From Patescibacteria group bacterium (lineage in GTDB: Bacteria > Patescibacteriota > Patescibacteriia > UBA9934), in contig JBAZWW010000003.1 of assembly GCA_041660165.1 (NCBI GenBank), forward strand, positions 4,352 to 68,351: a DNA stretch of 64,000 bases, given 5' to 3'. The notes beneath the pieces were generated by a model. That model was not told where the DNA came from and ran no database searches. It was given only the letters and a program-made list of their open reading frames with translations. Each line of letters begins with the position of its first letter. Positions within the stretch are counted from its first letter, which is position 1. Below are positions 11,814 to 54,359 of this stretch, in pieces. Made by a program: the position numbers and the translations under genes.

Positions 11814-11933
11814 AGATTTTCTTACGGTCGCATTGGCGCCGTAGCAGTCGAGACGATGCTCGACCAGTGATTTAGTGAGGGGAATATAGCGGAAAAGGGC
11901 AGGTGAGTCAAGAAACCCTGGCCCCAATTCTAC

Positions 11934-15518: not shown

Positions 15519-16292
15519 ATGCTTAGCCAAAACGAAGTGCAGGAAATTGTGACAGATTCATTGAAGAAACTGGGGGTAGGGGAGCAAGAGGGAAGGCTGT
15601 ACATTCTTTCGCTCAAAGTTGGGCCGGCGTCCGTGGCCACGCTCGCCACACAGCTCGGCGTATCCCGCCCGCAGGCGTATAAGCTCATTGGCGAGCTGGA
15701 AAAGTTCGGTTTGGCTAATTATTCGGGGAGAAAAAAGTTTTCGCGCACATTTATTGTTGAATCGCCGTCCAAGCTTCAAGAACTCCTGCGCAAACATCAG
15801 CAACTGACCGTCCAAACAGATCAGCGTCTCACCTTTTCGATGCCTGATCTCCTTGCCATGTACCAACAGGGCGAATTGCCGACTTCGGTTCGAATAATTC
15901 AAGACAAAGAAAACTTCCTAAAGCTCTTTTTCCAAACGATTGAAGAAACGAACGAATCCTGCTGGCTTGGCTCTGCGCACGACTTTATTGGCTTCATTTC
16001 TTGGGCAGAGGAGCGAAAATGGATCGCCGAACGGATTCGACGAGCCGTGCGCGTTCGGGTGTTGCTCCTGCCGAGTGAGGAAGCCGAAGGCTTCAAGAAA
16101 ACTGACGCCGAAGAATTCCGCGAGACTCGAATCCTCGATGATGCCGAACCGTTTGAAACTCTCTATCAAGTCTTTGCCAACAAAATAATCATGTGGCAAC
16201 CAAAAACACCCGTCGCCATTCTTATTGAGGATGAATACCTCGCCAAGATGATGAAGAGTGTTTTCGAGTTATTGTGGGCGCGGGCGAAGTGA
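15519..16292 (+). CDS. TrmB-family HTH transcriptional regulator (paralog 1)
   Basis: N-terminal winged-helix region LGVGEQEGRLYILSLKVGPASVATLATQLGVSRPQAYKLIGELEKFGL is typical of TrmB regulators; 257 aa. Confidence 0.65.
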   Translation: MLSQNEVQEIVTDSLKKLGVGEQEGRLYILSLKVGPASVATLATQLGVSRPQAYKLIGELEKFGLANYSGRKKFSRTFIVESPSKLQELLRKHQQLTVQTDQRLTFSMPDLLAMYQQGELPTSVRIIQDKENFLKLFFQTIEETNESCWLGSAHDFIGFISWAEERKWIAERIRRAVRVRVLLLPSEEAEGFKKTDAEEFRETRILDDAEPFETLYQVFANKIIMWQPKTPVAILIEDEYLAKMMKSVFELLWARAK

Positions 16293-16380: not shown

Positions 16381-16430
16381 ATCGCCTCATCCTGATTACC
16401 AATCAGATCCTTCGCTCCGCTCAGGATGAC
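16381..16430. repeat. Palindromic MITE/REP-like intergenic repeat (type 1, partial left arm)
   Basis: cctCATCCTGAttaccAATCAGATCCTTCGCTCCGCTCAGGATGAC. Same family as 32302-32373, 45224-45253, 45554-45580 and 49459-49492. Confidence 0.6.
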
Positions 16431-16454
16431 AACATGCGCATGGCTCAGAATGAC

Positions 16455-19132: not shown

Positions 19133-20383
19133 ATGGAAAACTTCGACGTGCTGATAGTTGGGGCGAGTTTCTCTGGGCTAACCTTAGCGCATCATCTTCC
19201 TCGTCATCTGCGAGTATTGATTGTCGATGCAAAACCAGGCGCCGGCAGTACTGTCGAATCCACTGGTTTAATCACCGAAAAAACCCGCGCCGAGTTTCTC
19301 TCGTTCTTTCCGATTGACCGGTATATTACTAATCCGATCAGCTCAATTTGCGTGGTCGCTCCTAATTTTACTGACCATTTCGTTTCAACGGTGAAGGAGC
19401 CGTGGATTTATCAAACAGATACCAAGGCGCTCATCCGATCACTCGCGGATACGCTCCCCCAAAATGTAACGCTCAAAACCTCGACGATTTATCTTACGAG
19501 TAATCGGCCCCACAATCCAACCTCAGCCACTATCCGAACACTCGGCCAGGAACCAGAAGAAATCGGCCTCAAGTTCCTCGTCGGAGCCGATGGGGGACAC
19601 TCGAAAGTTGCTTCGACGAATCTCACGCTCAGCAAAAATACCCGTTTTCTTTTTGGTTACGAGCAAGTTTTCTTTGGCGAGGTGTTACTCGGCCCAAAAC
19701 CCGCAGAAACAATTTTCCACTATTGGTTTGGCGAGTTCTCCCTCGGCTACGGTGGTTGGCTCTCGCCAACGGTTGTTGAAGGACGCAAAGCCTTCCGCAT
19801 CGGCCTCGCCAAGTTAATGAAAGACAGAGGTGAAGCCAAGGGCCTCATGGAATCCTTCATGAAAAAGTTAGTCGAGCTCGGTCATATTCGAGTAGAAGGC
19901 GAAATCACTGCACCTGGATACGTTTTCGGCTCGCATATCCCTCTCGGCGGTCCTCGGTTAAAAATTGCCGACGGCAATACGCTCTTGATAGGCGATGCCG
20001 CGGGATTCTGCGGAGCCTTCGCCGCTGACGGCATCAAAGGCTCGGTCATCTCCGGCAAAGAAGCCGCGCGAGTCATTGACGACTACCTGCAAGGAAGAAC
20101 CGAAGCCGTTCACACTTTGCGCCAACGCATGAACCAGCACGGCGGAATCATGAAATATTACGTCCGCCAGCTGGCCTACCGCTTCATCTGGGACCGCATG
20201 CGGACTGATCGCTCATTCACGGCCATGTTCGGGATCATCTCCGCCGAACACGAGTCCTTCCTGGAACAATTCTGCGACAGCAAAGACAAGCACCGCTCCC
20301 TAGCCTGGACCGTCTTGAAACCAAGACATGCCGAGAAACTGGCCAGGTATGCTTGGTATTTGATTTGCGATTTGGTGAAATAA
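19133..20383 (+). CDS. FAD-dependent oxidoreductase, geranylgeranyl reductase family
   Basis: N-terminal dinucleotide-binding DVLIVGASFSGLTLA, plus LVGADGGHSKVA and GDAAGF motifs; 416 aa. Confidence 0.65.
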   Translation: MENFDVLIVGASFSGLTLAHHLPRHLRVLIVDAKPGAGSTVESTGLITEKTRAEFLSFFPIDRYITNPISSICVVAPNFTDHFVSTVKEPWIYQTDTKALIRSLADTLPQNVTLKTSTIYLTSNRPHNPTSATIRTLGQEPEEIGLKFLVGADGGHSKVASTNLTLSKNTRFLFGYEQVFFGEVLLGPKPAETIFHYWFGEFSLGYGGWLSPTVVEGRKAFRIGLAKLMKDRGEAKGLMESFMKKLVELGHIRVEGEITAPGYVFGSHIPLGGPRLKIADGNTLLIGDAAGFCGAFAADGIKGSVISGKEAARVIDDYLQGRTEAVHTLRQRMNQHGGIMKYYVRQLAYRFIWDRMRTDRSFTAMFGIISAEHESFLEQFCDSKDKHRSLAWTVLKPRHAEKLARYAWYLICDLVK

Positions 20384-20387
20384 AAAC

Positions 20388-20422
20388 GAGAGGCCTGCAC
20401 ACGGTGCAAAGCCTCTCTTCGA
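20388..20422. terminator. Bidirectional terminator hairpin between convergent genes
   Basis: GAGAGGCctgcacacggtgcaaaGCCTCTCTTCG. Confidence 0.4.
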
Positions 20423-20478
20423 GGTCCAAGGTATCTACAGGTCATCCCGCCCAGGACGATACTTCTGCAGATACACCT

Positions 20479-21442
20479 TCAGCCCGTTAGACGGCAGAAA
20501 TTTCCTGGCCGTAGCGTCACGGGCGTTGTTGTGCCATGCCATTGAACCGTCAGGCTTACGTAGGCGTACGTAGCCTTCTCCTCCGACTCGTTGCCGATAA
20601 CCAGGTCACCGAAGAGAACCTTGAGACCACTTCTGCGGTGTCGAAATTCTACCGTCCGGCCCTGGTGGTTGTGTCTGGTGGATTCTGACATGAACTCGAA
20701 TTCGCGGGAGCGCTTCAGCTCCACAAGCAACGCATCGAAGTTAATGCGGTGCTCATCAGTCCACTGCAGTATGGTCTTACTGCCTGGCGTAGTCTGCTCA
20801 TCACGAATCGGTATCGTGAAGAGGTCAGAGAAGTACGCGATCCCTGCCCCGAGATCCGCCACCCAGCGTACGAAGGCCTCGACCTTTTTCACGGAGTCCA
20901 TGTAACCAAGAGCGAGCGTGGTGCGGGTCATGACCCTGATGCCCTTACCTACCATGTGAGGAATGAGCAGGTCGAAATCAACATTCCCCATAGCTACCCC
21001 GCTCACCGCCACCCGGTCCTTCCGCGTCAGGCCGTGCAGGGACAGGTTCATGTCCTGAACCCCGAGGGCTACCAACCGATCGAGATACGTTTCCGTCGTA
21101 TCCGCCAAAATCGGTTCGAAGAGACGCACGCCGTTTGAATAGATGGTCAACAGGTCGATTTCGGCGCCATGCTGGCGCTGTTCGTTGATGAGCCGGAGTG
21201 CTCCAAAGAGCTTAGCTGGAGCATCAAGGGGCTCACCCCCCACCGGTCAGAATGATCCGACGTCCGCCGCCGCTCAGGTAGGCCTCAAGATGTTGCTCGA
21301 AGTCCCCCAGAAACGACCGCGTCTCCGCTTCCTCTACCACTGGCCGAATGAGCGGAGAGCAGAACTTGCAGCGACCACCCCGGCAGGTATTGGTGATCTC
21401 CACCTTCATCTCAACATCGGCGAATTCCTGTTCGTTGAGCAT
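20479..21442 (-). pseudogene. Radical SAM enzyme disrupted by a +1 frameshift in a G6 homopolymer
   Basis: ORF 21233..21442 encodes ...VEITNTCRGGRCKFCS...RRIILTGGG*. ORF 20479..21243 continues as GGEPLD... in the -1 frame. Removing one G from ACCGGTGGGGGGTGA restores ILTGGGEPLD, a glycine-rich SAM-binding motif. Local GC is about 58%. Confidence 0.6.
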
Positions 21443-21606
21443 TTAAGTGTCCTTTGTTGATATTGTTAAGGTGCAACCTGGATACATGATAGATGAAATC
21501 TTGGTTATTGTCAGTAAAACAGACTACCGTTTTACCCAAAACCATAAAATGCTTGCGGTTAAAGGCCACTGTGATATACTAGTGTTGTCCTAATATCGGA
21601 CAGTAT

Positions 21607-22344
21607 ATGAATACAGTCTCTTCTCTCACTAAAGTTGGGCTCAGCCAAAATGAGGCCAAGATCTATCTGTGTCTCCTTAAAATCATTGAGGGAACGGCTT
21701 TTCAGATTGCCAAACGCGCCGATATCCCTAGAACCACAGTCTATGCATCACTCGAATCGCTAAAAGCGCAGGGCCTAGTAACCTCCTTCAGGAAAAACAA
21801 CGTTTTCTATTTCACTGCTGAAAATCCAAAACAAATTCTCACCATTCTCCGCCACAAACAAGAAATAATGAATGAATTACTGCCGTCTCTGCAGGCTTTA
21901 TCAGTAGGCACGGATATCCAGCCCTCAGTAAAAATGTTTACCGGAACGCAAGGCCTGAAACTGGCCTTTGAAGACATTTTAGAAACTCTCAAAAGTACGG
22001 GTGAAAAAGTGTTGTATGCGGCCGCCTATCCGGATGTCATGGACGCCTTGCCAAAGTACTATCACGAATGGGTCAAACGAAGAGAAAAACTCGACGTGAC
22101 TACAAAAATGATCTTGCCGGAATCTGCGCGTGACAGGACAAACTTCTATGAAGGCCATAATCGCCAGGTACGGTTCATGCCAGAACCATATCTCTTCCAA
22201 TGCGCCATGGATATTTACGCCCACAAAATAGTCTACTTCGCTACCAAAGAAGGCCAAACGTATTCAATAATTCTTGAGTCCCCAATCATTGCCGATGCGT
22301 TCCTGCAATTCTTTCTCTTCGCCTTTGATCATCTCCCGCAATAA
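21607..22344 (+). CDS. TrmB-family HTH transcriptional regulator (paralog 2)
   Basis: LTKVGLSQNEAKIYLCLLKIIEGTAFQIAKRADIPRTTVYASLESLKAQGLV; 245 aa. Confidence 0.65.
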   Translation: MNTVSSLTKVGLSQNEAKIYLCLLKIIEGTAFQIAKRADIPRTTVYASLESLKAQGLVTSFRKNNVFYFTAENPKQILTILRHKQEIMNELLPSLQALSVGTDIQPSVKMFTGTQGLKLAFEDILETLKSTGEKVLYAAAYPDVMDALPKYYHEWVKRREKLDVTTKMILPESARDRTNFYEGHNRQVRFMPEPYLFQCAMDIYAHKIVYFATKEGQTYSIILESPIIADAFLQFFLFAFDHLPQ

Positions 22345-22418
22345 TGACCCCATCTCTGGAAATAACTTGATTTTTCGGCCAATATCTGCTACTCTATTCA
22401 GCGTTATGCATTTTTGCT

Positions 22419-22493
22419 GCCCTGGTAGCTCAACGGATAGAGCGGGGCTCTTCTAAGGCCATGATGTTGGTTCGATTCCAACCCGGGGCACCA
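22419..22493 (+). tRNA. tRNA-Arg (anticodon TCT)
   Basis: GCCCTGGTAGCTCAACGGATAGAGCGGGGCTCTTCTAAGGCCATGATGTTGGTTCGATTCCAACCCGGGGCACCA. Anticodon loop CTTCTAA, T-loop TTCGATT, acceptor GCCCTGG/CCGGGGC, encoded CCA. Confidence 0.75.
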
Positions 22494-22533
22494 ATAGTGC
22501 ACAAAAGTAAAAGTCTCCCAAATCGGGAGACTT

Positions 22534-22863
22534 TTATGTTAACTGGAGCATCTTCTTTAATCGAGAATCCACGCCCTGCATAAGTGTTGGCTCAATCTGC
22601 CCCAATTCCCCAAGGACAATCTTCTTCTGAAGCGTGGCTAGTTTATTAACCTTGATGACCGAATCCTTTTTGAGTCCATTCGAACGTGTTGCTTTGATCC
22701 TTAAATCAAACGCCCCCAATTTAGCCTTTTGGATAGAGGAAATGAATGACACGATACAATCGTCGCCAGTCTTCTGCTCATAAAGGACTACGCAGGGGCG
22801 AACTTTATTCCCCGAAAGATCAGTGAACGGAAACGGAACGAGGACAATGGTTCCTTTAAGCAT
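22534..22863 (-). CDS. mazF: Type II toxin, PemK/MazF family mRNA interferase
   Basis: MLKGTIVLVPFPFTDLSGNKVRPCVVL matches the MazF/PemK N-terminal signature; 109 aa. It overlaps the upstream antitoxin by 8 nt. Confidence 0.75.
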   Translation of the reverse strand: MLKGTIVLVPFPFTDLSGNKVRPCVVLYEQKTGDDCIVSFISSIQKAKLGAFDLRIKATRSNGLKKDSVIKVNKLATLQKKIVLGELGQIEPTLMQGVDSRLKKMLQLT

Positions 22864-23107
22864 ATCTCTTCTTCAAATCCGCCACCGAGTACAACTCCGG
22901 CTCTTCCTGCAAAAAATCAAAGCTCCTGGACGCAGTGTTGATATTCGTAATCTCATTAACATCCTTGTTGTAGTAGCTTGGAAATTGAATCACGAGCGCG
23001 TCAATTGAGTGACGCCTACCAATGCCGAATACTTCGCCGTGCGTTTTTACGCGGTCAATGATGTGGCTCATCTGTTTCCTGGCGTTTGTAGTCGTCACAA
23101 CGTGCAT
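22856..23107 (-). CDS. Phd/YefM-like antitoxin
   Basis: Internal start MHVVTTTNARKQMSHIIDRVKTHGEVFGIGRRHSIDALVI resembles Phd/YefM; 83 aa. It is immediately upstream of, and overlapping, mazF. Confidence 0.55.
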   Translation of the reverse strand: MHVVTTTNARKQMSHIIDRVKTHGEVFGIGRRHSIDALVIQFPSYYNKDVNEITNINTASRSFDFLQEEPELYSVADLKKRYA

Positions 23108-23222
23108 ATGTACAAATTGTACAAAATGAATGCAAATCACACAAGATGTTGGCGAATCTCGCATAAAATCAACAGCGGCCGGGAATTCGTTCCCGACCGC
23201 TGATAGTTTGTCTACCCGTTTC

Positions 23223-23768
23223 TCACTGATACTCGTGCACCATCTTCCGCAACTTCATACGGGCAGAAAACAAGCACCGTTTCACCTTTCTCCGCGGAAT
23301 ACCCAAGACGTCTGAGATCTCCCTATACGAGAGACCTTCGAGCTCGCGCAGGAGGATCACTTTCTTCTGATCAATCGGCAGTTTATCAAGCGCATCCAAA
23401 ACTTTCCTATGTAACCGCCTACGCTCCTGGGCACCTAACGATACATCATTGTCTCGATCTGCCATCTGTAGCCCTACTTCCTCCGCGTCCGAACTCCGCT
23501 TTTTCTTTCGTTTGCCGAGGAACTCCACCGCCAACTTCATGGCGATGCCGTACAACCAGAGGTGGAACTTGGACTCAAGAGAAAAGCTGTCCAGGTTGGT
23601 GTATGCCTCCACGAAGGAATTCTGCGTAATGTCGCGAGCATCCTCCCGGTTACGGAGCATGCCGAACATGAGAGAATACACTTGCACATGATATTTCTCG
23701 ACAATGAGTCGGTAGGCGGGGGCGTCACCATCCTTCACCGCCATAAGAATCTCGAGATCGTCGTACAT
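23223..23768 (-). CDS. RNA polymerase sigma-70 factor, ECF subfamily
   Basis: Region 2 (YRLIVEKYHVQVYSLMFGMLRNREDARDITQNSFVEAY) and region 4 (ILLRELEGLSYREISDVLGIPRRKVKRCLFSARMKL); 181 aa. Confidence 0.8.
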   Translation of the reverse strand: MYDDLEILMAVKDGDAPAYRLIVEKYHVQVYSLMFGMLRNREDARDITQNSFVEAYTNLDSFSLESKFHLWLYGIAMKLAVEFLGKRKKKRSSDAEEVGLQMADRDNDVSLGAQERRRLHRKVLDALDKLPIDQKKVILLRELEGLSYREISDVLGIPRRKVKRCLFSARMKLRKMVHEYQ

Positions 23769-23848
23769 GTTGCCCCCAATCTGTCAGTTCTGAGCTATCG
23801 ATGTATTCGATCGCTCGGATCTGAACGCGAGGAGAGATGATGGTCATC

Positions 23849-24088
23849 TCAATCCTCGCGCGACGGCTTTTGAGCTGCCGTCATGTCAGCAGACGGCTCT
23901 GCATGAACTGATCGTACAAGGTCGAGATCATGACGAGTGGGTTCCATAAGATCGATAATCCGCTCGTCAATCTTCAGACCCGTTCGCATGACTGCAGCGA
24001 TATACGCTTTGTGAGCCAATTGGCGTATATCCGATATGTCAGAATCAGAAATAGTTCCCCAGCAATCAATCGGATCTCCAACGTGCAA
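23849..24088 (-). CDS. Hypothetical small protein upstream of the ECF sigma gene
   Basis: 79-aa ORF on the same strand as the sigma gene, with no recognised domain. Confidence 0.3.
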   Translation of the reverse strand: MHVGDPIDCWGTISDSDISDIRQLAHKAYIAAVMRTGLKIDERIIDLMEPTRHDLDLVRSVHAEPSADMTAAQKPSRED

Positions 24089-24199
24089 AGTCCACCTCCT
24101 GGCTGTATGATTGGGTAAGAATTTGCCTTACCGCACGGTTACAGGATATCATAAATCACAGCTTTTGTCAACCTAACAGGGTGATAATAATAGAATACT

Positions 24200-24961
24200 G
24201 TGGCTAAAATAGAGCTAAAATCAGCCCTTATATCGCTGGGCGTTACGGAACAGGAGACTGAGGTCTATTTAGCGCTGGCCGAGCTTGGAGCATGTACCAG
24301 CGGGCCGATTATTGAAAAAACTGGCCTGCACAGAAATGTTGTCTACACGGCGCTAGAACACTTAATCGCTCGCAAATTCGTCCTCGAATCCCAAGTAAAA
24401 GGTAAAAAACAGTTTGTAGTGGCTGATCCGACTGTCATTTCTACAGAATTCTCGCAAAAAGCCGAGATAGCCCGTGATGTGGCACTCGGAATTCAGACCC
24501 TCGCCAAACGCCAGAGGCAGGAAATCTCCGTGCATGAGGGAAATGAGGAATACCTCGCGCTGTTAGCCAGGCTGATTCGCGAACTGCCTCGAGGTGCCAC
24601 CAAGTACGTCCTTGGCACCGGCGGGGAAGCATTCATGGCCCTAACCATGCGTCCCATTTGGCGCAAATATCACAAAGTAGCCAAAGAGCAGGGGATTAAG
24701 ATCAAAATGATTGCATATGAGTCACAAAGGGCCGCGCTTGAACAGGATGTAACAAAAGAGGGGATCTATGAGGTGCGCTATCTGCCAGACGAAATTGAGA
24801 ATCCTTCCGGCGTTCATATCTACCCAGAAGCGAACACCATGCTGAACATAATTTACTCAACTACTGAACAACCTGTAACCGCCATTCGCATAAAAAATCC
24901 CGACCTTGTCCAAGGACAGCTCAACCTGTTCAAAAATCTTTGGAAGACGGCCAAGCCCTAG
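24200..24961 (+). CDS. TrmB-family HTH transcriptional regulator (paralog 3)
   Basis: LGVTEQETEVYLALAELGACTSGPIIEKTGLHRNVVYTALEHLIARKFV; 253 aa. Its end overlaps the convergent TIM-barrel gene by 4 nt. Confidence 0.65.
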   Translation: MAKIELKSALISLGVTEQETEVYLALAELGACTSGPIIEKTGLHRNVVYTALEHLIARKFVLESQVKGKKQFVVADPTVISTEFSQKAEIARDVALGIQTLAKRQRQEISVHEGNEEYLALLARLIRELPRGATKYVLGTGGEAFMALTMRPIWRKYHKVAKEQGIKIKMIAYESQRAALEQDVTKEGIYEVRYLPDEIENPSGVHIYPEANTMLNIIYSTTEQPVTAIRIKNPDLVQGQLNLFKNLWKTAKP

Positions 24962-25659
24962 CCTGCTCTCAAGTACCCCGTTATATATTCAAACTCCGTC
25001 TTCACCTCTTCAATGGCGTCAAACGTACTTTCAATAACCATCGGCACGTCGAGCTGTTTAGCGTAATCAAGGATGATCAGCTGTTGTGTTTGATAAAGCG
25101 GTTCGTGATAGCCCGCGTATCCGCTGATGTGCAGTTGTTTGATGCGGGCGCGGAACTCGGCGATAAATTCGTCAGCAAGTTTCATTGAGGGGTCGTTAGA
25201 AAAACAATGATTGAGGTCAAGAACCATGCCCCATGAATCATTCTCCTCAAAAAACTTTTTCAAGTCATCAACATTCTTAAAAGCCTTGTTTCGACAATCC
25301 ATGTTTTCCGCCGAGAAATTCATCGGATACTGACCGAATAACTCGGTGCTATCAATGAGATCCGGGTGTACAACAACGAGCTCAGCACCAATTGCTTGAT
25401 ACAACTCAAATGCCTTATCAAGCACGGCCTTTGTAACATCATCATTCGCGTAACGAACATCAGACGGCAGATGGATGGACGTTCTTGGATACTGTTTAGC
25501 AAACGGCGCAACCTCCATAAGCCGTTCTCCTTCCGCCAAATTGTTCCAACAAATCTCCAGCAATTCGCTCCCGCTCTTGGCATAGGCCTCAAACGCCCGC
25601 GGAGAAAACTTATCCGGTAGTCTATACAACGCCCCGTGAGTAAAGCCAATTTTCGGCAT
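24958..25659 (-). CDS. Sugar phosphate isomerase/epimerase (xylose-isomerase-like TIM barrel)
   Basis: 233 aa with VVHPD, LDLNHCF and LHISGYAGYHEPL metal-site-like motifs typical of the AP-endonuclease-2/xylose-isomerase TIM fold. It is the last gene of the HD / AlaRS-like / TIM-barrel operon. Confidence 0.6.
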   Translation of the reverse strand: MPKIGFTHGALYRLPDKFSPRAFEAYAKSGSELLEICWNNLAEGERLMEVAPFAKQYPRTSIHLPSDVRYANDDVTKAVLDKAFELYQAIGAELVVVHPDLIDSTELFGQYPMNFSAENMDCRNKAFKNVDDLKKFFEENDSWGMVLDLNHCFSNDPSMKLADEFIAEFRARIKQLHISGYAGYHEPLYQTQQLIILDYAKQLDVPMVIESTFDAIEEVKTEFEYITGYLRAG

Positions 25660-25670
25660 AAGAATGTTGA

Positions 25671-26807
25671 CTATCTTGTTGAAGCAATTTTATCTGCTAA
25701 CGTTTCTTTAATATATTCACGCTTTGCTTCAAACTCAGGAAATAGTACCCCAAAAAGATCAATCGCATTATCTGTCAGATTGGCAATGGTGACCGGCGAG
25801 TTGCGGAGCGACAACCGTTCGGCGCTATTATTAAAATTACGTATATATTTGTTAAATAGATACTTGCGGCTCCGATTTTTACTGCCGTGAAGTTCGCATA
25901 CCCCGTCATGCACTAAAAATACCAGTCCGCGGATATGGTCACACATAATGATCGCTTCTCTGTGAAGTTCTGGAGGAACAACCCCAAGCTGTCCCTTGAG
26001 ATTGTCGAGTATTGAAATATCGCCGATATCGGCAACCTGTTCAAATATTCTCATCAAACGTTGAGGCCCGAAACCTGCAGCAATGGCTGATTGGCTCATA
26101 GGCGTCAAGTCAAAATGCGATTCGCCGGTTTTGGTTTTCGTCACGCTGACCTCAAGGCTGTAAAGAACGTGGGTAAAAAACTCAAGCACTCCGCCTGTCT
26201 GTTCCGCAGCCCAAAATTCTGCCGGTGTTAATGCAATGCGCGATTCCTGCAAATCATAAAAGAATTCGCACCGCGGACCGCCAACAGGTTCAACCGTATT
26301 CGCCACAAAGCATTCCATCGGCGCACTGAGAAGCGTAGGAATGATGTGATCTGCTTGAAAACCAAGCGAAAGCAAAATGTCCCGCACTTCGTTATCAGGT
26401 TCAAAGGCGATGCCCTTGATCTCACCCCCGGCAAAATATGTGGCGTAGATTCTTGAGGCATCAAGATGGAGCTGTTTCGTAAAGAATTCTAAAAAGTGCC
26501 CAAGAACTTCAGTGCGAGTGAACCCGCCAATGCTATCGGCAACAAACATATTAAAAAATGATAGATGCTTACCGTCTCCCGTCAAATCAATATCCCAATG
26601 CCGGATACATGGCTGATTAACAATGTGGTTCCCCTGCAAAGAAGTATCACCACGCCAAAATTTATAGGCCAAATCAGGACCACCGCTCATGGTAAATGTT
26701 GTGGGGAAAATAGAAGAAACCAATTTCTCCCTCTCGCGGACTGCGTACCCCTTGGCAATCATGAAATTCTGAAACTGGAGATGAAGCTGGTAAAAATCAT
26801 TTTTCAT
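25671..26807 (-). CDS. Alanyl-tRNA synthetase catalytic-domain-only paralog (class II AlaRS core without tRNA-binding, editing or C-Ala domains)
   Basis: 378 aa that align along the AlaRS N-terminal catalytic domain. FQNFMIAKGYAV matches FLDFFxSKGH. NQPCIRHWDIDLTGDGKHLSFFNMF matches TSQRCVRxxDxxxVGxTxRHHTFFEMLGNFSFGDY. RIYATYFAGGE matches RLWVTVYExDDE. GGPRCEFFYD matches GPCGPCTEIFYDH. GFGPQRLMRIF matches GMGLERL. MCDHIRGLVFLVHDGV matches ADHIRAxAFLIADGV. Confidence 0.75.
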   Translation of the reverse strand: MKNDFYQLHLQFQNFMIAKGYAVREREKLVSSIFPTTFTMSGGPDLAYKFWRGDTSLQGNHIVNQPCIRHWDIDLTGDGKHLSFFNMFVADSIGGFTRTEVLGHFLEFFTKQLHLDASRIYATYFAGGEIKGIAFEPDNEVRDILLSLGFQADHIIPTLLSAPMECFVANTVEPVGGPRCEFFYDLQESRIALTPAEFWAAEQTGGVLEFFTHVLYSLEVSVTKTKTGESHFDLTPMSQSAIAAGFGPQRLMRIFEQVADIGDISILDNLKGQLGVVPPELHREAIIMCDHIRGLVFLVHDGVCELHGSKNRSRKYLFNKYIRNFNNSAERLSLRNSPVTIANLTDNAIDLFGVLFPEFEAKREYIKETLADKIASTR

Positions 26808-26907
26808 AAGACCTTTAAACCCAGCTTAACACGCCAGCCATGGGTTGGGTAATTTTCTGCGAGTAAAACAAAATGAGCCCTTTTAAAGACCTGCTCAGGT
26901 CTGACGG

Positions 26908-28395
26908 CTAATCGTTCTTGGCGTGGATGAGGTCATTCGCCAGACGGATAGCGGATTCGCGGACGGTGCGCGTGGGCACCAGCGGGGAACGGGGGACTTC
27001 CATGTAGAGCCGGACCATGCTCGCTTCTTGATCACGGAGCGTACACATGATGGCGGACTCTTGGAACCAGGTGGATTCCGCAGTCGAACAGCTGTACTTG
27101 CTCTCCGCATCGAATCCCACCAGGTACGAACCCTTCTCAATGTCCTTCATGGCCCGAAGCGGACGCCGATCCATAATGAAATGGATCTCCGGATACTGCT
27201 TCTGTAGTCCCTCCAGGAGCGGGCCACAGAGCCAGGTCTCTCTGGCCTTGAAGGCCCATACCCGCTTCCATAGCTTTCGTTCCTGAATCAATCTGGCCAG
27301 CTCAGAGATCCGTTCATTCGCCGGAAAGCCGGGTCGAAGAGTCCCCGTCAGCAGGCCCAGAAACATTTCATCGCCCAAGAAGAGGTAACTCTCCGTGAAC
27401 GAATCCAAACTTTCCATGTTCACTGGAGTGAGGCCCTGCCGGGTTGCCTCTTCTCCAATGGTCTGGAGCATGAGCTCCGCGGCTCGGTTGGTCTTGTTAA
27501 AATAGAACCCGCGGAACATCTGGAACCTCCCCCAGATGAAGGTCTCAATGGCTGAGAGTCCGCTTTCCCGCCAGCCCAGGCGGTAGCAGTCAGCTCCATC
27601 TGCATCGCGCACACAGAGCGCGGACTTGAGAATGCGGTGCTGATCGTAGTGTCCGCAGGTCACACCCGTAGCCCGCGAGTCCCGCAACAGGTAGTCCATA
27701 CGGTCCGCGTCCACTGGCGCAGAACTCACCATGTCCCGAATGAACGGGATCCACGGCCGGAGCTCTTCCGGCACGTTGAGGGCGTCCTCTCCAAGAAGAA
27801 CGGAAGCCACCACTCGGGGCATCCATTCATCTCCGCCAACATCGTTCCAAATGCAGGCGAACATGATGACGGACACCGTCTCATGGTGGACTCGGCCGGA
27901 CTTGGAAGCGATCAGCACGTTGCGGTACGGCGCGATTGCTTTGAGTCGAGGGTCATCCAGCACGCGATCGACGTCCTTCACGCTGGGCGCAAAGGCGTCA
28001 AAATTGTGGGACAACGGCCCGTGTCCCAGGTCATGCACGAGCGCGCACAGCCTGAGTACCCGGCGGATCTGCGCGTACTCCGCGGGCGGGAGATCAGCCA
28101 GACAAACCGCCTGTCCCGGCTTTGCATCCCGGAGCGCATAGAGCTTCCCGCGGATCTTCACGGATTCCCGATTGACCGCCTTCAGGATCCTGTTCGCCAT
28201 GGCCATCGTTCCCACTGAATGTTCAAACCGCGTGTGAACCGCGGACGGGAACACCAGGTGGAGCAGGCCGGTCTGACGAATATGCTTCATGCGCTGGAAA
28301 AGGCTGTGATCAATCACCGCCATCTCTTCATCAGTGAGATTCACAATACCGTGCAGACTATCCACGATAGTCCGCGATAGAACAAACAGACCCAT
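26908..28395 (-). CDS. HD-domain dGTPase/SAMHD1-like dNTP triphosphohydrolase family protein
   Basis: 495 aa. HTRFEHSVGTMAMANRI...LCALVHDLGHGPLSHNFD (HD motif) and VDADRMDYLLRDSRATGV (dGTPase-family signature). GC is about 60%, far above the flanking genes. Confidence 0.75.
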   Translation of the reverse strand: MGLFVLSRTIVDSLHGIVNLTDEEMAVIDHSLFQRMKHIRQTGLLHLVFPSAVHTRFEHSVGTMAMANRILKAVNRESVKIRGKLYALRDAKPGQAVCLADLPPAEYAQIRRVLRLCALVHDLGHGPLSHNFDAFAPSVKDVDRVLDDPRLKAIAPYRNVLIASKSGRVHHETVSVIMFACIWNDVGGDEWMPRVVASVLLGEDALNVPEELRPWIPFIRDMVSSAPVDADRMDYLLRDSRATGVTCGHYDQHRILKSALCVRDADGADCYRLGWRESGLSAIETFIWGRFQMFRGFYFNKTNRAAELMLQTIGEEATRQGLTPVNMESLDSFTESYLFLGDEMFLGLLTGTLRPGFPANERISELARLIQERKLWKRVWAFKARETWLCGPLLEGLQKQYPEIHFIMDRRPLRAMKDIEKGSYLVGFDAESKYSCSTAESTWFQESAIMCTLRDQEASMVRLYMEVPRSPLVPTRTVRESAIRLANDLIHAKND

Positions 28396-28450
28396 AAACC
28401 ACCTCCGGCTCTAGTTGTTACAAATTTACTAGGAGATGTCAAAGCTCGCC

Positions 28451-29128
28451 CTAGTCCAAATAGTAGCCCGTCCCCCAACTCATTCCGACCCCGAGAGTTT
28501 CAGTATTTTGCGACCAAGTAGCTGGTTCTGAGTCGACGATTGTATACGTTCCCGGTTCAAGGGTTACATCTGGCGAGACGTTCCAATAAACACTCGGTGC
28601 GCCACCTTGGCCGTCCGAGGTCGTCACTGACCACGGGCCGTACGTTTTTCCACTCGCATCTTTTAGGCCGAGTGTCCCGCCGGTCGCGCCCTTCGCATCA
28701 TTCCAATGGTAGGTCGACATGGTTTTCAACTGCGCTTTCTTGGCGAGGGTAAAGGTAGCCGGGGTTCCGCCGTTAAACACCGCCATGATACTGCCGATAT
28801 TAAACAGCTCTACCGTTGGCTGGCTTGGCGTATCTTCATATTTCAACACCTCGCCCGTTCCATCAGTATCTGATGTGGTCGAAGCTGGAGCTGGCGCTGG
28901 AACCGAAGCCGGTTTGCTATCTGCATCTCGTAAATCGCTTAACGGCGTTGTCTTGCCATCTTCGGTCTCAACATATATCTGGTCAGTCGACTTATTTGGA
29001 TTCTCATTTGCGTATTGCTCCGCAGCTGCTCTGGTGCTCCTATAAACCTCATCACATCCGGCCGTTACCAGAAACGCCGACATCACCCCGACCACCATCA
29101 AACCTCGACCAAAAGAATATTTGTTCAT
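28451..29128 (-). CDS. Lipoprotein
   Basis: Internal start MNKYSFGRGLMVVGVMSAFLVTAGC gives a lipobox with Cys. The mature part is Ser/Thr/Gly/Pro-rich; about 225 aa. Confidence 0.5.
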   Translation of the reverse strand: MNKYSFGRGLMVVGVMSAFLVTAGCDEVYRSTRAAAEQYANENPNKSTDQIYVETEDGKTTPLSDLRDADSKPASVPAPAPASTTSDTDGTGEVLKYEDTPSQPTVELFNIGSIMAVFNGGTPATFTLAKKAQLKTMSTYHWNDAKGATGGTLGLKDASGKTYGPWSVTTSDGQGGAPSVYWNVSPDVTLEPGTYTIVDSEPATWSQNTETLGVGMSWGTGYYLD

Positions 29129-29195
29129 AAGTTGCCCAAAGTATAACCAACAAACAAACAAAAACAAAAAACCTCCCGTTCGGGAGATTCTTTGC

Positions 29196-29271
29196 TGGGG
29201 TGGCTAACGGGAATTGAACCCGTACTAGAGGTACCACAAACCTCTGTGATAACCATTTCACCATAGCCACC
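29196..29271 (-). tRNA. tRNA-His (anticodon GTG) with genomically encoded G-1
   Basis: Reverse complement is G-GTGGCTATGGTGAAATGGTTATCACAGAGGTTTGTGGTACCTCTAGTACGGGTTCAATTCCCGTTAGCCACCCCA. Anticodon loop TTGTGGT, extra 5' G opposite discriminator C, T-loop TTCAATT, encoded CCA. Confidence 0.85.
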
Positions 29272-29433
29272 ATGACACGAACGGAGGCATGATAGCAGGG
29301 AAAAGGGGATAAATCAAGGCTTCATCCCGATGACAATACGCAATCGGTAATTGACGAAAACGTACTTACAAGGCACTCTCTCACGTCGATCGTCCACCGA
29401 TGACCGACCGATCCCCACGTTTCGGAGGTCACC

Positions 29434-29964
29434 ATGCTCGCACTCCTTCTGCTCGGTTCCGCGTTGGCCGGCGACACCTTTGTTCAGCTCCAGGCTGATA
29501 CGGCGGTCACCCTCGCTGATGGCGCGGTTGACGAGCGCGCTAAGGTGCTCATTGACGATCCGCTCAATAAGAAATGGAGCGTGAGCGTTTTCACGCTCGT
29601 AACGCCAAACTACGGCGAGCTCATCCTTGGGCCAACGCTTCACGTCAACGACTTCGCGCTCACCGTGAGCATCGGCATCGAAACTGCAGAGATGCCCCTG
29701 CGTGGCGAGTTCTCACTCTACTGGGCGCACCGTCATCTTGAAGTGCTCATCTCCGCTGAAACCGGCGGGTCAGGGCCATGGTACGTCAGCTTCGTGAAGG
29801 AACACATTGGATGCCTCACGGTCGGTATTCTCACCCAACGATTCGACGGCATTGGCCCGCGCATCGGCCTTGCGACGGACAGATCCGAATTCTGGATCTC
29901 GCCCATGTACGACTACGAGGACGGCGCGTTCAACATCCTAGCCGGTCTCAGCTGGACGCCGTAA
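29434..29964 (+). CDS. Secreted hypothetical protein (GC-rich, beta-rich)
   Basis: Strong RBS GGAGGTcaccATG. Signal peptide MLALLLLGSALAG. 176 aa with alternating hydrophobic pattern; about 62% GC. Confidence 0.45.
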   Translation: MLALLLLGSALAGDTFVQLQADTAVTLADGAVDERAKVLIDDPLNKKWSVSVFTLVTPNYGELILGPTLHVNDFALTVSIGIETAEMPLRGEFSLYWAHRHLEVLISAETGGSGPWYVSFVKEHIGCLTVGILTQRFDGIGPRIGLATDRSEFWISPMYDYEDGAFNILAGLSWTP

Positions 29965-30060
29965 CTACCGTGCCCGCAAACAAAGCCCCGACGGCGTTCG
30001 TCGGGGCTTTAATTATTTCAGTTGAATGATACTGAAAGACGCGCTACGCTTTAAAAAAGT

Positions 30061-30456
30061 ATGCTGCACATCAAGTATAAACTTGCCCCCTCAATACATC
30101 ACGGCATCGGTCTTTTTGCCGATCAAAATATACAAAAGAATCAGCTGATTTACTCGGCCAGCCCGTTGCTCGACGTTAATATCTCTCCCGAAGAATTCAG
30201 TAAATTATCGCTCTCGGAACAAGCCGAGATTTCGTATTGGGGTTTTCTCGATAAACAATCTGGCCTTTGGCACGTTGATTTTGATGTTTCAAAATTTATC
30301 AATCACTCTTCAGCGCCAAATATCACGCAAGATCCTATCTCAACAGAAACTCGCCTCATTGCCCTAAAAGACATTTCCGCCGGCGAGGAACTGACGCAAA
30401 ACTATCTTGAATTTGAAACAAAAGAAGATCTGAAGAGAAGAGGGATCAGTACTTAA
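30061..30456 (+). CDS. SET-domain protein (putative protein-lysine methyltransferase)
   Basis: 131 aa. INHSSAPN matches the SET NHSCxPN motif and GEELTQNY matches GEELTxxY; preceded by a GIGLFA-like N-SET segment. Confidence 0.6.
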   Translation: MLHIKYKLAPSIHHGIGLFADQNIQKNQLIYSASPLLDVNISPEEFSKLSLSEQAEISYWGFLDKQSGLWHVDFDVSKFINHSSAPNITQDPISTETRLIALKDISAGEELTQNYLEFETKEDLKRRGIST

Positions 30457-31298
30457 CCTTTTAACTTTTTCTGCTTAGGCGGGAGCTGGCCGATTTTTCG
30501 GCGAACAAGGTCTTTAATGTGCTCTTGGGCTGGCCGGTCTTCAGGCATGGGGGCATTTAATTTTTGGATGGTCTCACGGACGGCCTGTCCAACCTTAAAG
30601 TGCGTGTAGCTAGCGGGATCTTCGCCTGTAATACCATCTCTTATTAGTAATTCGTTGGTCTGAGTGATGCGGAAAAGATTGGCTGCTAACTCAGCCGACC
30701 CGGCAAAATCTAAAATATCACCCTCACTAATTCCTTTCTTCTTGCGAATATCGCTTGCCGTTAGTCCGTAAAGACCAACGTAGCCAAAATTATTGAACTT
30801 CCCGAAATTTTCTACACCGGCATCTTTAGCGGTTCTAAATAACCGATTATTATGCGAAGCCACCTGACGTCTTATCTGCAACCGATTCCCATCGTCATCA
30901 ATCACCTCTAATAGCTCTTGCTTCCTGGTCTGCACAGCAAAATATGTTTGCGCAAAAGCGATCTCGGGCTTTCGAGGATCACCATTTTGAGCAATTAGAT
31001 AACAAGCAAAGCGGGAAAGCTGATAATCAATAATCTTACGCCTCGCCTCTCTCGGCGTGTTTTTGCCAATGATTATCATTTTCGGGTCGACCCGAAAATG
31101 ATCCTCAAGCGACTGACTCGTACTAGCACAAACTGCTTGGGCCCGACGAATAGTCTTATGGAAGTCCTCCCATCTCGAATAATCGAGTAATGACATCAAC
31201 TCCCTGGCCTCCCAATATTCAAAACCCTGCTCATCTACCTTCTTAATTGACTCAAAATCCTTATGTAACGAAACCGGCACAATGGCATTGTTCGGCAT
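30453..31298 (-). CDS. dinD: DNA-damage-inducible protein D family protein
   Basis: EYWEARELMSLLDYSRWEDFHKTIRRAQAVC...DHFRVDPKMIIIG...LSRFACYLIAQNGDPRKPEIAFAQTYFAVQTRKQEL closely follows the E. coli DinD N-terminal domain; 281 aa. Confidence 0.7.
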   Translation of the reverse strand: MPNNAIVPVSLHKDFESIKKVDEQGFEYWEARELMSLLDYSRWEDFHKTIRRAQAVCASTSQSLEDHFRVDPKMIIIGKNTPREARRKIIDYQLSRFACYLIAQNGDPRKPEIAFAQTYFAVQTRKQELLEVIDDDGNRLQIRRQVASHNNRLFRTAKDAGVENFGKFNNFGYVGLYGLTASDIRKKKGISEGDILDFAGSAELAANLFRITQTNELLIRDGITGEDPASYTHFKVGQAVRETIQKLNAPMPEDRPAQEHIKDLVRRKIGQLPPKQKKLKG

Positions 31299-31363
31299 AT
31301 GTTCGTATCATACGACGAACAAATTTTGTCGCAAAACGGTTTGTACACACCAAAAAAGCGCCT

Positions 31364-32290
31364 CTATTTCTTTTTTTTGTCGTGGAACTCTTTGTACACG
31401 CGCCCCAGCTCTTTATCCGTAATATGGGTATACACCTGCGTCGTCGTAATCGACTCGTGTCCAAGCAATGATTGCACCGCGCGAATATCGGCGCCGTTTC
31501 GCAGTAAGTCTGTAGCGTAAGTATGTCGCAACGTGTGCGGGGTTACGCGTTTAGTGATCCCCGCTTCTCGAGCGTAGCGATCGACGATCCGCTGAACCGA
31601 GCGGGGAGTGAGCGGTTGGGCGCTCGCCGAAGAACGTCGAGCTCGATCATGCCGTACAAAAAGATAAGGCGAGGTGTCCTTGCGATGATCGAGATACGCC
31701 TTAATCGAACGCTTGGCATCGTCCGACAAGTAGACAATGCGATGTTTCTTGCCTTTGCCGAGCACCGTGAACTCATCCCGTTTCAAATTGATATTTTCGA
31801 TCTTCAAAGTCGAAGCCTCGGACACGCGCATACCGGTCGAAAACAAAAGCTCGAGCATGGCCTTGTCGCGATAACCAACAATGGTTGGGTCGTTCAACGG
31901 GCCGGCGCGAAATCTTTCGAACTCGTCGGCTTCGAGAAAACTCACATGCCTGGTGCCTTGTTTCGCGAGTTCGATCTTCTCAGCAGCCATGCTCTTAATA
32001 TCTCTCTTCGCGAGGTACTTCAGGAACGCTCGCAAAGCGATCAGGTGATAATTTTGCGTATTCTTTTTCAAATTCGCTTCCTCTCGCCCCGCAATGTCTC
32101 GGTTCAAATGAAGCCGGTACTTCCGCACCATTTCCTGCGTAATCTCCTGCGGATTGGGATGCTTGGCCCAATCCGAAAACCTGCTCAGATAAAAATGGTA
32201 ATTTTTCACCGTCTTATCCGACCGCCCACGCTCGATCTCCAGGTACTCAAGAAATTCTTTAATGTATTTGGCAAGTATGTTCTTTGGCAT
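31364..32290 (-). CDS. Tyrosine-type site-specific recombinase/integrase (XerC/XerD-like)
   Basis: 308 aa. N-terminal SAM-like core-binding domain. Catalytic motifs GMRVSEASTL (R), HTLRHTYATDLLRNGADIRAVQSLLGHESITTTQVYTH (H-x-x-R...Y). Confidence 0.85.
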   Translation of the reverse strand: MPKNILAKYIKEFLEYLEIERGRSDKTVKNYHFYLSRFSDWAKHPNPQEITQEMVRKYRLHLNRDIAGREEANLKKNTQNYHLIALRAFLKYLAKRDIKSMAAEKIELAKQGTRHVSFLEADEFERFRAGPLNDPTIVGYRDKAMLELLFSTGMRVSEASTLKIENINLKRDEFTVLGKGKKHRIVYLSDDAKRSIKAYLDHRKDTSPYLFVRHDRARRSSASAQPLTPRSVQRIVDRYAREAGITKRVTPHTLRHTYATDLLRNGADIRAVQSLLGHESITTTQVYTHITDKELGRVYKEFHDKKKK

Positions 32291-32301
32291 ATTACGATGT
32301 T

Positions 32302-32373
32302 GTCATCCCGAGCAGAGCGAGGGATCTGAATGGCCAATCAGATCCTTCGTCGCTAAAAGCTCCTCAGGATGAC
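32302..32373. repeat. Complete palindromic MITE/REP-like element (type 1 exemplar) abutting the integrase start
   Basis: GTCATCCCGAGCAGAGCGAGGGATCTGA-atggccaa-TCAGATCCTTCGTCGCTAAAAGCTCCTCAGGATGAC forms a long imperfect hairpin. Confidence 0.65.
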
Positions 32374-32705
32374 ACTGACCGTGTGTCGCACATTGTACAC
32401 CCGCGGTACCGTATAAAGAGTTGACCTCAGCCATTTTCCGGTGTATCCTCCTGCCTCTGCGTCGCCTGACGCGGATCGAGTTCCTTTCGTTCCATGGAGA
32501 GTTCGTGCCCCTGCCTCATGAGGCTCCCAGCCTCCCGCCCGTTGATCCCTTTGGCGAGCAACCGCTCGCGACCTTTGACGAGAGGGAAGACTTTCGCCCG
32601 CGCCTGTCAATCTACAAATTGCCCGGTACAGGCAGGTTGCCCCTTGTCCCAACGTCTCACCCTAGCCCAGCCGTACCGTACGAGCTGGAAAAATCATGGA
32701 GAGCG

Positions 32706-44984: not shown

Positions 44985-45225
44985 AATGATCCCGCAATTC
45001 AAAAACGAAGCCGCTGAACAGGCTTTCTGGGAGAAACACGACTCCAGTGAATATCTTGACTGGTCAAAAGCCAAACTGGCTGTTTTTCCTGAATTAAAAA
45101 CTTCAACGGAAGCAATTTCTCTGCGTTTGCCCACTTCGCTTCTCAGCCGTATAAAGTCGGCGGCCAATAAGATCGACGTCCCGTATCAGTCGTTCATCAA
45201 GATGATTATCGACAAAGCCGTCTAA
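44956..45225 (+). CDS. BrnA-like antitoxin
   Basis: 89 aa. EAAEQAFWEKHDSSEYLDW...ISLRLPTSLLSRIKSAANKIDVPYQSFIKMII matches BrnA (RHH-like) antitoxins. It overlaps the BrnT remnant. Confidence 0.6.
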   Translation: MNDKHMQKLKMIPQFKNEAAEQAFWEKHDSSEYLDWSKAKLAVFPELKTSTEAISLRLPTSLLSRIKSAANKIDVPYQSFIKMIIDKAV

Positions 45226-45253
45226 TCAGATCCCTCGCTTTGCTCGGGATGAC
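45224..45253. repeat. MITE/REP-like repeat (type 1 half-copy) immediately after the brnA stop
   Basis: AATCAGATCCCTCGCTTTGCTCGGGATGAC. Confidence 0.55.
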
Positions 45254-45259
45254 ACATAT

Positions 45260-45514: not shown

Positions 45515-45553
45515 AGCTACATTGTAGCTTTAGCAAAATGCTCTCGACCGATG

Positions 45554-45580
45554 CAGATCCCTCGCTCTGCTCGGGATAAC
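45554..45580. repeat. MITE/REP-like repeat (type 1 half-copy)
   Basis: CAGATCCCTCGCTCTGCTCGGGATAAC. Confidence 0.5.
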
Positions 45581-45598
45581 ACATCTCGGGATGGCGCG

Positions 45599-49458: not shown

Positions 49459-49492
49459 GGCCAATCAGATCCCTCGCTCCGCTCGGGATGAC
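49459..49492. repeat. MITE/REP-like repeat (type 1 half-copy) after dnaN
   Basis: GGCCAATCAGATCCCTCGCTCCGCTCGGGATGAC. Confidence 0.55.
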
Positions 49493-49537
49493 AGAATGGT
49501 TGAGACGGTAGAAAGATCGAAACGACAAAACAAAAAA

Positions 49538-54283: not shown

Positions 54284-54359
54284 TGGAGGCCGCGGCCGGG
54301 GTTGAACCGGCGCATAAGAGTTTTGCAGACTCCCGCGTTAACCACTTCGCCACGCGGCC
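54284..54359 (-). tRNA. tRNA-Cys (anticodon GCA)
   Basis: Reverse complement is GGCCGCGTGGCGAAGTGGTTAACGCGGGAGTCTGCAAAACTCTTATGCGCCGGTTCAACCCCGGCCGCGGCCTCCA. Anticodon loop CTGCAAA, U73 discriminator typical of Cys, encoded CCA. Confidence 0.8.

Follow-up and report, generated by a model that had tools for sequence, protein, structure and literature searches.

The 64,000-nt stretch of DNA analysed here (the window; contig JBAZWW010000003.1 of a Patescibacteria group bacterium, positions 4,352 to 68,351) contains five tRNA genes predicted by ARAGORN. Two of these, tRNA-Arg(TCT) (22419–22493, plus strand) and tRNA-His(GTG) (29196–29270, minus strand), were identified by both ARAGORN and Rfam and point their 3' ends (22493 and 29196) inward at a 6.7-kb block of nine open reading frames (ORFs; 22494–29195). 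A first-pass annotation of the sequence had described this convergent arrangement, which is borne out, and had read the block as a composite genomic island or defence islet. Comparison with related genomes shows that the block is an accessory patch in the middle of a hypervariable zone of 11 kb, which was probably assembled piecemeal. The region as a whole is a new and fairly ordinary example of a known feature type, a rearrangement-prone hotspot around two tRNAs near the replication origin.

The gene content listed earlier for the block was largely matched by library and profile searches. Adjacent to tRNA-Arg is a minus-strand toxin-antitoxin unit. The MazF/PemK toxin (22534–22863) was assigned by Pfam PF02452 (5.3e-15, 56 bits against a cutoff of 23.1) and by the MazF-like PHROG (3e-14), and overlaps by 8 nt a putative antitoxin ORF (22856–23107) that is weakly Phd/YefM-like (Pfam E = 0.018, 15.2 bits against a cutoff of 29.8; Phd-like PHROG 8e-4). 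The antitoxin reading frame is open to 23164, with Met20 the likely start, giving 83 residues. The second unit comprises an extracytoplasmic function (ECF) sigma factor (23223–23768, minus strand), assigned by Pfam and NCBIfam, and upstream of it a 79-aa candidate ORF with a TTG start (orf79; 23849–24088, minus strand), which encodes a hydrophilic product with no family match in Pfam, NCBIfam, PADLOC or PHROGs. A promoter-like site lies near orf79 at 24171–24143. Next to orf79, on the plus strand, is a TrmB-family regulator (regulator 2; 24200–24961, Pfam TrmB 1.5e-8).

The remaining four genes of the block are all on the minus strand. The first encodes a 233-aa TIM-barrel-like protein (TIM233; 24958–25659) of the xylose-isomerase/AP-endonuclease-2 superfamily (AP_endonuc_2 7e-5), which matches the PADLOC model PDC-M70B over its full length (2.8e-27). 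The second encodes a 378-aa paralogue of the alanyl-tRNA synthetase (AlaRS) catalytic fragment (25671–26807; tRNA-synt_2c 7e-23), and the third a 495-aa HD protein (HD495; 26908–28395), a putative dNTP triphosphohydrolase of the SAMHD1/EF1143/Aq_1910 type. HD495 matches solved dNTPases (PDB 2hek 2.5e-24, 2o6i, which is EF1143, 2.5e-20, and SAMHD1 ~1e-15) as well as phrog_35128 (3.7e-59). Given that its scores fall below curated cutoffs (TIGR01353, 21 against 152; Pfam HD, 21.1 against 22), HD495 is a divergent member of the SAMHD1/dGTPase-type family. The last is a lipoprotein-like gene (28451–29128) with a signal peptide ending in LVTAGC, whose true start is the ATG at 29128; public gene calls begin later (215 aa), which is why an exact look-up of the protein from that ATG found nothing. 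Only distant homologues of its C-terminal domain (at most 52% identity), without shared synteny, were recovered by a metagenome scan with a lipoprotein alignment. The HD, AlaRS-like and TIM genes had been called an operon; the word here means no more than that they are co-directional and separated by 100 bp and 11 bp.

Terminator-like hairpins flank the toxin-antitoxin unit on both sides. One, common to tRNA-Arg on the plus strand and mazF on the minus strand, is at 22508–22536, and a strong minus-strand hairpin (23173–23202; 13-bp stem with 9 GC pairs) separates the toxin-antitoxin unit from the ECF sigma unit. A third follows tRNA-His (29163–29196, minus strand) and relocates jointly with that tRNA in relatives. 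Because such hairpins stand between genes, the block is a row of separate units. Its largest intergenic gap is 111 bp. The tRNA-Arg promoter region (~22366–22407) is kept across the relatives aligned, and Rfam searches of the window and of the closest related locus (L078) returned tRNAs only.

The variability does not stop at the tRNAs, which had been proposed as the bounds of the block: variable genes also lie to the left (20479–22344) and to the right (29434–31298). The conserved left flank consists of polA (16455–19097, minus strand) and an FAD-dependent oxidoreductase gene (19133–20383, plus strand; Pfam FAD_binding_3), which adjoin in 6/6 related loci. To the right, the order xer-rpsO-NYN-pnp is kept in L013, L075 and L076, three of the relatives introduced below. 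The variable zone is therefore 20384–31363, with both tRNAs inside it. Its left part holds a radical-SAM gene (20479–21442, minus strand) that is split by a frameshift into ORFs of 69 and 254 aa; because the same split is present in three independent assemblies, this is a real pseudogene and not a sequencing error. The gene is intact (336 aa) in L078 and absent in L013, L077, L075 and L076. Beside it is TrmB-family regulator 1 (21607–22344, plus strand; Pfam TrmB 2.6e-15), present among the relatives compared only in the window and L078 (89% identical) and sharing 23% identity with regulator 2. In the right part, Pfam identified orf176 and a SET-domain protein on the plus strand, the latter missing in L013, and a Bro-N protein on the minus strand (30453–31298; PADLOC PDC-S13 1.5e-95, phrog_8036 4.9e-82). 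The Bro-N gene is conserved at the same position in L013/L077 (67–69% identity) and has homologues (47–49%) on two IMG/VR viral contigs (L082 and L083).

A genome-collection scan with the FAD oxidoreductase (19133–20383) placed the organism among CPR (candidate phyla radiation)/Patescibacteria bacteria, near Ca. Uhrbacteria. The zone was compared with five species-level relatives (L013, L077, L075, L076 and L078, with L076 being the same species as L001). Absence in a relative here means absence from this locus. Gene content between the FAD gene and xer falls into five contents spanning 2.3–11 kb. The two genes are 10.98 kb apart in the window but closer together in L013 (~5.8 kb), L076 (5.6 kb) and L075 (2.3 kb). 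The content between the tRNAs is thus not core synteny, in line with the earlier reading, as it differs in every related genome found. From FAD to xer, the window carries the frameshifted radical-SAM gene, TrmB regulator 1, tRNA-Arg (forward), MazF, antitoxin, ECF sigma factor, orf79 and TrmB regulator 2, followed by TIM, AlaRS-like, HD and lipoprotein genes, tRNA-His (reverse), orf176, SET and Bro-N.

The closest relative is L078, with an FAD oxidoreductase 96% identical at the amino acid level and ~83% at the nucleotide level. Its order is the intact radical-SAM gene, TrmB regulator 1, a GIY-YIG gene, tRNA-Arg (forward), MazF (83% identical), antitoxin (93% identical, likewise 83 aa) and a disrupted TIM gene, after which the contig ends early. 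A 1.83-kb module corresponding to 23148–24979, with the ECF sigma factor, orf79 and TrmB regulator 2, is lacking in L078, and no callable repeat or microhomology was found at the junctions of this indel. The TIM gene of L078 has suffered an internal deletion and a change of frame.

L013 and L077 (FAD 81–83%) are collinear with ~24 kb of window sequence. They lack window positions 20371–22365 and 22513–28460 and have a small extra insert to the right of tRNA-His. Their order begins with tRNA-Arg (forward), lipoprotein, tRNA-His (reverse), a small HD gene and orf176, and continues with a 254-aa ORF, a ~500-aa HD homologue and Bro-N. The lipoprotein gene (68–77% identity) is the sole gene between the tRNAs that they share with the window. 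The HD homologue (47% identical) lies 3 kb away in the opposite orientation, on a different segment that replaces the SET gene, and has no AlaRS-like or TIM neighbour.

In L075 and L076 the two tRNAs stand in tandem, 55–83 bp apart, with tRNA-His and its terminator aligning to window positions 29158–29276 in reverse orientation. L075 carries a 329-aa ORF, tRNA-Arg, tRNA-His (both forward) and a bestrophin-like gene; L076 carries a 327-aa ORF and the same tandem tRNAs, followed by a 174-aa ORF, an M23 peptidase, a 460-aa ORF, an unrelated ECF sigma factor and an orf176-like gene. A neighbour-joining tree of the single FAD gene places the window and L078 as sister to (L077, (L075, L076)). On this FAD tree, the convergent tRNA arrangement with the lipoprotein gene is probably ancestral to the group and the tandem arrangement derived. 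The differences between the window and its relatives therefore consist of several independent indels and an inversion of tRNA-His, not of one unit.

Two distant CPR loci extend the comparison. The order in L081 is NYN-rpsO-..-xer-tRNA-Arg(tct)-IVP-tRNA-His-CSD-TIM, with TIM 46% and Xer 59% identical to the window; in L080 it is polA-PPase-TIM-murD-..-holA-rpsT, with TIM 47% and PolA 43–49% identical. The divergence of TIM is similar to that of PolA (43–49%) and slightly above that of Xer, NYN and S15 (51–59%). TIM is thus about as diverged as core genes, which fits vertical descent, and by sequence similarity and gene order TIM has long resided in this neighbourhood, as the distant CPR genomes show. 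In L081, the interval between tRNA-Arg(tct) and tRNA-His (3947–4577) holds a 23S-rRNA-IVS-protein gene (PF05635, 2.9e-28), another small insertion into this tRNA pair.

These patterns suggest that the zone, in a Ca. Uhrbacteria-like CPR genome and between the conserved polA-FAD and xer-rpsO-NYN-pnp blocks, was probably built from small self-contained transcription units, each lineage having independently acquired, lost, moved or inverted its own. The units are the MazF/Phd-like pair, the ECF sigma factor/orf79 with the divergent TrmB gene, and the TIM, AlaRS-like and HD genes, with the tRNA genes and terminators probably serving as recurrent breakpoints. The genes for the lipoprotein, HD and TIM-barrel proteins are long-term residents; the toxin-antitoxin pair, the ECF/TrmB regulator 2 module and the AlaRS-like gene were either added in this lineage or kept where relatives lost them. 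The presence/absence pattern, the tRNA-His inversion, the lack of att repeats and of a recombinase in the block, and the conservation of Xer are direct observations; whether a given change was a gain or a loss, and that recombination around the tRNAs caused it, we infer.

A different weighting of gain and loss would make the block mostly ancestral, with streamlining deletions having produced the compact loci of L013, L075 and L076 and with little or no horizontal gain. CPR genomes are known for reductive evolution. In distant CPR genomes TIM stands near tRNA-Arg/tRNA-His/xer or near polA, at core-like divergence, which is in keeping with such a history, and decay is visible as pseudogenes in the zone in both sister lineages, of the radical-SAM gene in the window and of TIM in L078. 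However, unrelated genes occupy the same site in relatives, and therefore gains occur too: the bestrophin-like gene, the M23 peptidase, the different ECF sigma factor with the 460-aa gene, the ~330-aa ORF and the GIY-YIG gene all require them. The AlaRS-like family is moreover rare and patchy, with homologues in unrelated contexts on the three contigs examined. A history of loss with hardly any gain is consequently considered unlikely.

A single integrative island, inserted through a tyrosine recombinase at the tRNA-Arg (or tRNA-His) 3' end, with its integrase since lost and its attachment (att) sites since decayed, was also considered. The extra 5.95 kb relative to L013/L077 starts at ~22513, right after the tRNA-Arg 3' end (20 nt past it), and islands typically carry genes such as toxin-antitoxin pairs and regulators. 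Both tRNAs were searched against the whole window with blastn-short (word size 7), and a repeat search was run over 21.5–33 kb. No partial copy of either tRNA was found in the 64-kb window, the best non-self match being 11–13 nt (E ≥ 0.8), and only chance pairs of 14–26 nt emerged from the repeat search, so that the search for att-like repeats of the tRNA 3' halves, proposed together with the island, came back empty. Pfam and NCBIfam detected no recombinase or transposase domain in the nine block ORFs, and the block has no room for a pseudogene of one.

The tyrosine recombinase mentioned in the first-pass annotation is present at 31364–32290 (minus strand), 2.1 kb past tRNA-His, outside the block and in the conserved right flank. 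It scores 246 bits with XerC and 238 bits with XerD, both below cutoffs, and 231.5 bits with the XerA-type model NF040815 (cutoff 220). The protein is 90–92% identical in all four relatives with contigs extending that far, L013, L075 and L076 among them, whatever stands between their tRNAs and thus also in relatives without the block, and 59% identical in the distant L081, again beside rpsO/NYN. On these profile scores and this conservation it is a housekeeping Xer and not an island integrase.

Composition did not set the block apart either. Among 66 greedy ORF calls, gene GC was 0.488 ± 0.043 for the 9 in the block and 0.510 ± 0.045 for the 57 others (Mann-Whitney p = 0.089, Levene p = 0.90). 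The reported mosaic of an HD gene at about 60% GC with neighbours at about 45% is roughly right (HD 58.4%, AlaRS-like 44.9%, TIM 46.4%), but heterogeneity of this kind is found across the whole window, where per-gene GC ranges over 0.405–0.598 and per-kb GC over 0.44–0.59. GC and codon composition were accordingly rejected as an island marker. The block as a whole had no BLASTN match in collections of phages and plasmids, and scans of viral contigs with TIM, AlaRS-like, HD495 and the L078 GIY-YIG protein recovered no close relatives.

Evidence that tRNA-Arg can be struck by mobile DNA comes from L078. At 4069–4685 of that locus, a 601-bp cassette stands in place of an 11-nt leader and roughly the first 59 nt of the tRNA-Arg resident there. 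Between two GC-rich repeats, the cassette carries an 86-aa GIY-YIG gene (PF01541, 1.4e-17) followed by a complete tRNA-Arg(tct). The 3' end of the resident tRNA-Arg persists as an exact 16-nt direct repeat, CAACCCGGGGCACCAA, 154 bp downstream of the tRNA. This is possibly a homing-endonuclease cassette carrying its own tRNA; a group I intron is unsupported, as the GC-rich repeats match no Rfam family. Mobile DNA does therefore hit tRNA-Arg in this lineage, and the 16-nt repeat can be cited in favour of an island at this site. None of the cassette sequences occur in the window, however, and what sets the block apart from L078 is internal modules, not one unit. With the lipoprotein, HD and TIM genes resident in the neighbourhood, rather than imported cargo as had been supposed, a single integrative island is very unlikely. 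What survives of the genomic island proposal is that the region is accessory, variable and rich in toxin-antitoxin, regulator and candidate defence genes; one tRNA-targeted mobile insertion is not supported.

The other half of the original proposal, a defence islet, was considered in a functionally coherent form, with MazF and the SAMHD1-like HD, AlaRS-like and TIM proteins cooperating against phage. Both MazF and enzymes of the SAMHD1/dGTPase type are capable of a defensive role, PHROG phage families include homologues of HD495 and of Bro-N, and both TIM233 and the nearby Bro-N protein match PADLOC candidate models. Within the block, however, PADLOC reported only the orphan candidate PDC-M70B and a dGTPase match of 16 bits (E = 0.0012); its other candidate, PDC-S13, is outside the block. 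No complete known anti-phage system was found by PADLOC, the PDC-M70A partner was not found, and a literature search on 'PDC-M70' returned no papers. The case for a defence islet thus comes down to orphan PDC-M70B and MazF in the block and PDC-S13 outside it. With terminators splitting the block, the HD homologue of L013/L077 standing apart from any AlaRS-like or TIM gene, and the homologues of TIM and AlaRS-like sampled elsewhere lacking these neighbours, cooperation of these genes against phage is highly improbable.

The genomic contexts in question were three for the AlaRS-like protein (3 contigs, 49–65% identity), in unrelated settings with no HD or TIM neighbour, and three for TIM, with no AlaRS-like or HD neighbour. 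A conserved three-gene HD/AlaRS-like/TIM system was rejected, since the trio was not found in any of these six sampled homologue contexts. It is equally hard to credit that HD495, the AlaRS-like protein and TIM233 (24958–28395) form a new functional accessory or anti-phage module, built around a rare AlaRS paralogue and acting on tRNA, aminoacyl-adenylates or nucleotides; the version in which the paralogue alone has been neofunctionalised is considerably more likely, with a chance of about one in two.

The AlaRS-like protein, named 'alanine--tRNA ligase-related protein' by NCBI, is not a canonical alanyl-tRNA synthetase. It is 378 aa long, lacks the editing and C-Ala domains, and scores 80.6 bits against the alaS model TIGR00344, for which the cutoff is 457; the Pfam match covers profile positions 5–352 of 552. 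Its AF2 model (pLDDT 93.4) superposes with a TM score of 0.80 on the AlaRS catalytic fragments 4xem, 3hxu and 9jdn. The fold is therefore that of AlaRS, and the motif-2 arginine (CIR), FYD and G.G..R motifs are retained. In contrast, in 46/46 paralogues (P0001–P0046) the AGGK loop is deleted and the residues of the alanine pocket (E. coli AlaRS numbering) are replaced, Asp235 (the ligand of the alanine amino group) by Ala, Asn212 by Thr and Trp170 by Val. The family motif QPCIR-HWD keeps the motif-2 arginine, which is invariant (R69), without the AGGK loop, and the further motifs FVAN..EPVGGPR.E.FYD, LEF.TH and A.A.GFGPQR include the Asn212 to Thr and Asp235 to Ala changes in the latter two.

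Members of this family are stand-alone catalytic fragments of ~360–390 aa, some of them fused to a YbaK-type editing domain (PF04073) or an N-terminal MerR helix-turn-helix (HTH). The family is rare, with 47 matches in a word-indexed search of 5.8 billion proteins and 22 cluster representatives at E ≤ 1e-30 in a full scan of 1.84 billion, and appears largely confined to CPR and DPANN-like contigs. Distant matches include proteins of 900–1500 aa with an internal AlaRS-like domain. The paralogue looks conserved and neofunctionalised, and the odds are roughly even that by itself it is an enzyme acting on a substrate other than alanine.

A chimera of assembly or binning, with unrelated DNA joined at the tRNAs, as the metagenome-type assembly and the sharp jumps in per-gene GC might suggest, can be set aside with near certainty. 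Three independent assemblies of different samples carry the same sequence (99.995–100%, and 100% within the block) across both tRNA junctions, and the flanks are collinear with relatives on both sides. These assemblies showed no strain-level polymorphism.

Several points weigh against piecemeal assembly of the block as the probable reading. Only five species-level relatives were available, three of them on short contigs, and the L078 contig ends inside the block, leaving its AlaRS-like/HD/lipoprotein/tRNA-His part unseen. The absences describe this one locus and not the whole genomes of the relatives, and the polarity of events depends on a single-gene neighbour-joining tree together with two distant outgroup loci. 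Finally, the 5.95-kb difference from L013 begins where a tRNA-targeted insertion would begin.

The wider window places the zone close to the replication origin. Cumulative GC skew reaches its minimum at ~47–49 kb, where dnaA (46617–48020) and dnaN (48300–49433) lie, and the origin is therefore within the window, ~17–24 kb from the block; the variable zone is ~15–26 kb from oriC. Three families of short, GC-rich, palindromic REP-like repeats occur between genes of the window. One is found at 16399–16436, 32294–32392, 45222–45259, 45549–45586 and 49461–49498, and the others at 11919/16334/33672 and 34497/53128/61432. The copies immediately left of the polA stop (16399) and immediately right of the xer start (32297) are mutually inverted over 37 nt (89%), and this pair encloses the whole polA..xer segment. 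REP-like repeats were rejected as boundaries of the block, as none are inside or at the edges of 22494–29195.

Further features of the window and of the records used are given here as separate observations. Three TrmB-family regulators lie within 10 kb (15519–16292, 21607–22344 and 24200–24961), an unusual density; the TrmB family is best known from archaea. A second toxin-antitoxin-like pair beside a tRNA, a PIN-domain toxin (54409–54777) with a 76-aa upstream ORF (54780–55010), lies upstream of tRNA-Cys (54284–54359), ~50 bp from its 5' end. Many third-party annotation (TPA) records of metagenome-assembled genomes (MAGs) with clear Patescibacteria genes (L001, L006, L010–L012 and others) are titled 'uncultured Gammaproteobacteria bacterium', which looks like a labelling error.

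Among known systems, tRNA-associated integrative islands such as pathogenicity islands and integrative and conjugative elements (ICEs) are inserted by an integrase and bounded by attL/attR derived from the tRNA 3' end. The block resembles them in that its accessory genes start just 3' of a tRNA and its content varies among relatives, but it lacks att repeats, an integrase, presence or absence as a unit and compositional contrast, and several of its genes are old residents. A closer likeness is to chromosomal hotspots, or regions of genomic plasticity, which in the pangenome concept are sites of variable content between conserved core genes. As in these, the zone has conserved core flanks, a different gene set per relative and tRNAs within, and is enriched in toxin-antitoxin, regulator and candidate defence genes. 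It differs in being in a ~1-Mb-class CPR genome, ~15–26 kb from oriC, with repeated tRNA inversion and visible decay. Genomic islands predicted in the same phylum-level group share the same kinds of cargo (defence, transcription, translation); those were predicted by composition or IslandViewer-type methods, whereas the present zone is defined only by relatives and has no compositional signal. Free-standing GIY-YIG homing endonuclease genes are known from tRNA gene regions, for example segB of phage T4. In L078 only, a small GIY-YIG gene is likewise directly upstream of tRNA-Arg, in a cassette with its own tRNA copy; unlike segB, its homing role is putative and it is flanked by GC-rich repeats without an Rfam match, and the cassette is absent from the window.

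These findings are of modest practical value, the most useful by-product being a well-defined target for biochemistry, the AlaRS-fragment family with its rebuilt alanine pocket. The locus also serves as a caution that a tRNA with a nearby tyrosine recombinase does not by itself amount to an integrated island, the recombinase here being housekeeping Xer. For the biology of these organisms, the comparison shows turnover of accessory DNA in an ultra-small CPR genome even ~15–26 kb from the replication origin, where a short zone absorbs, shuffles, inverts and erodes small modules between fixed flanks, without a dedicated integrase.

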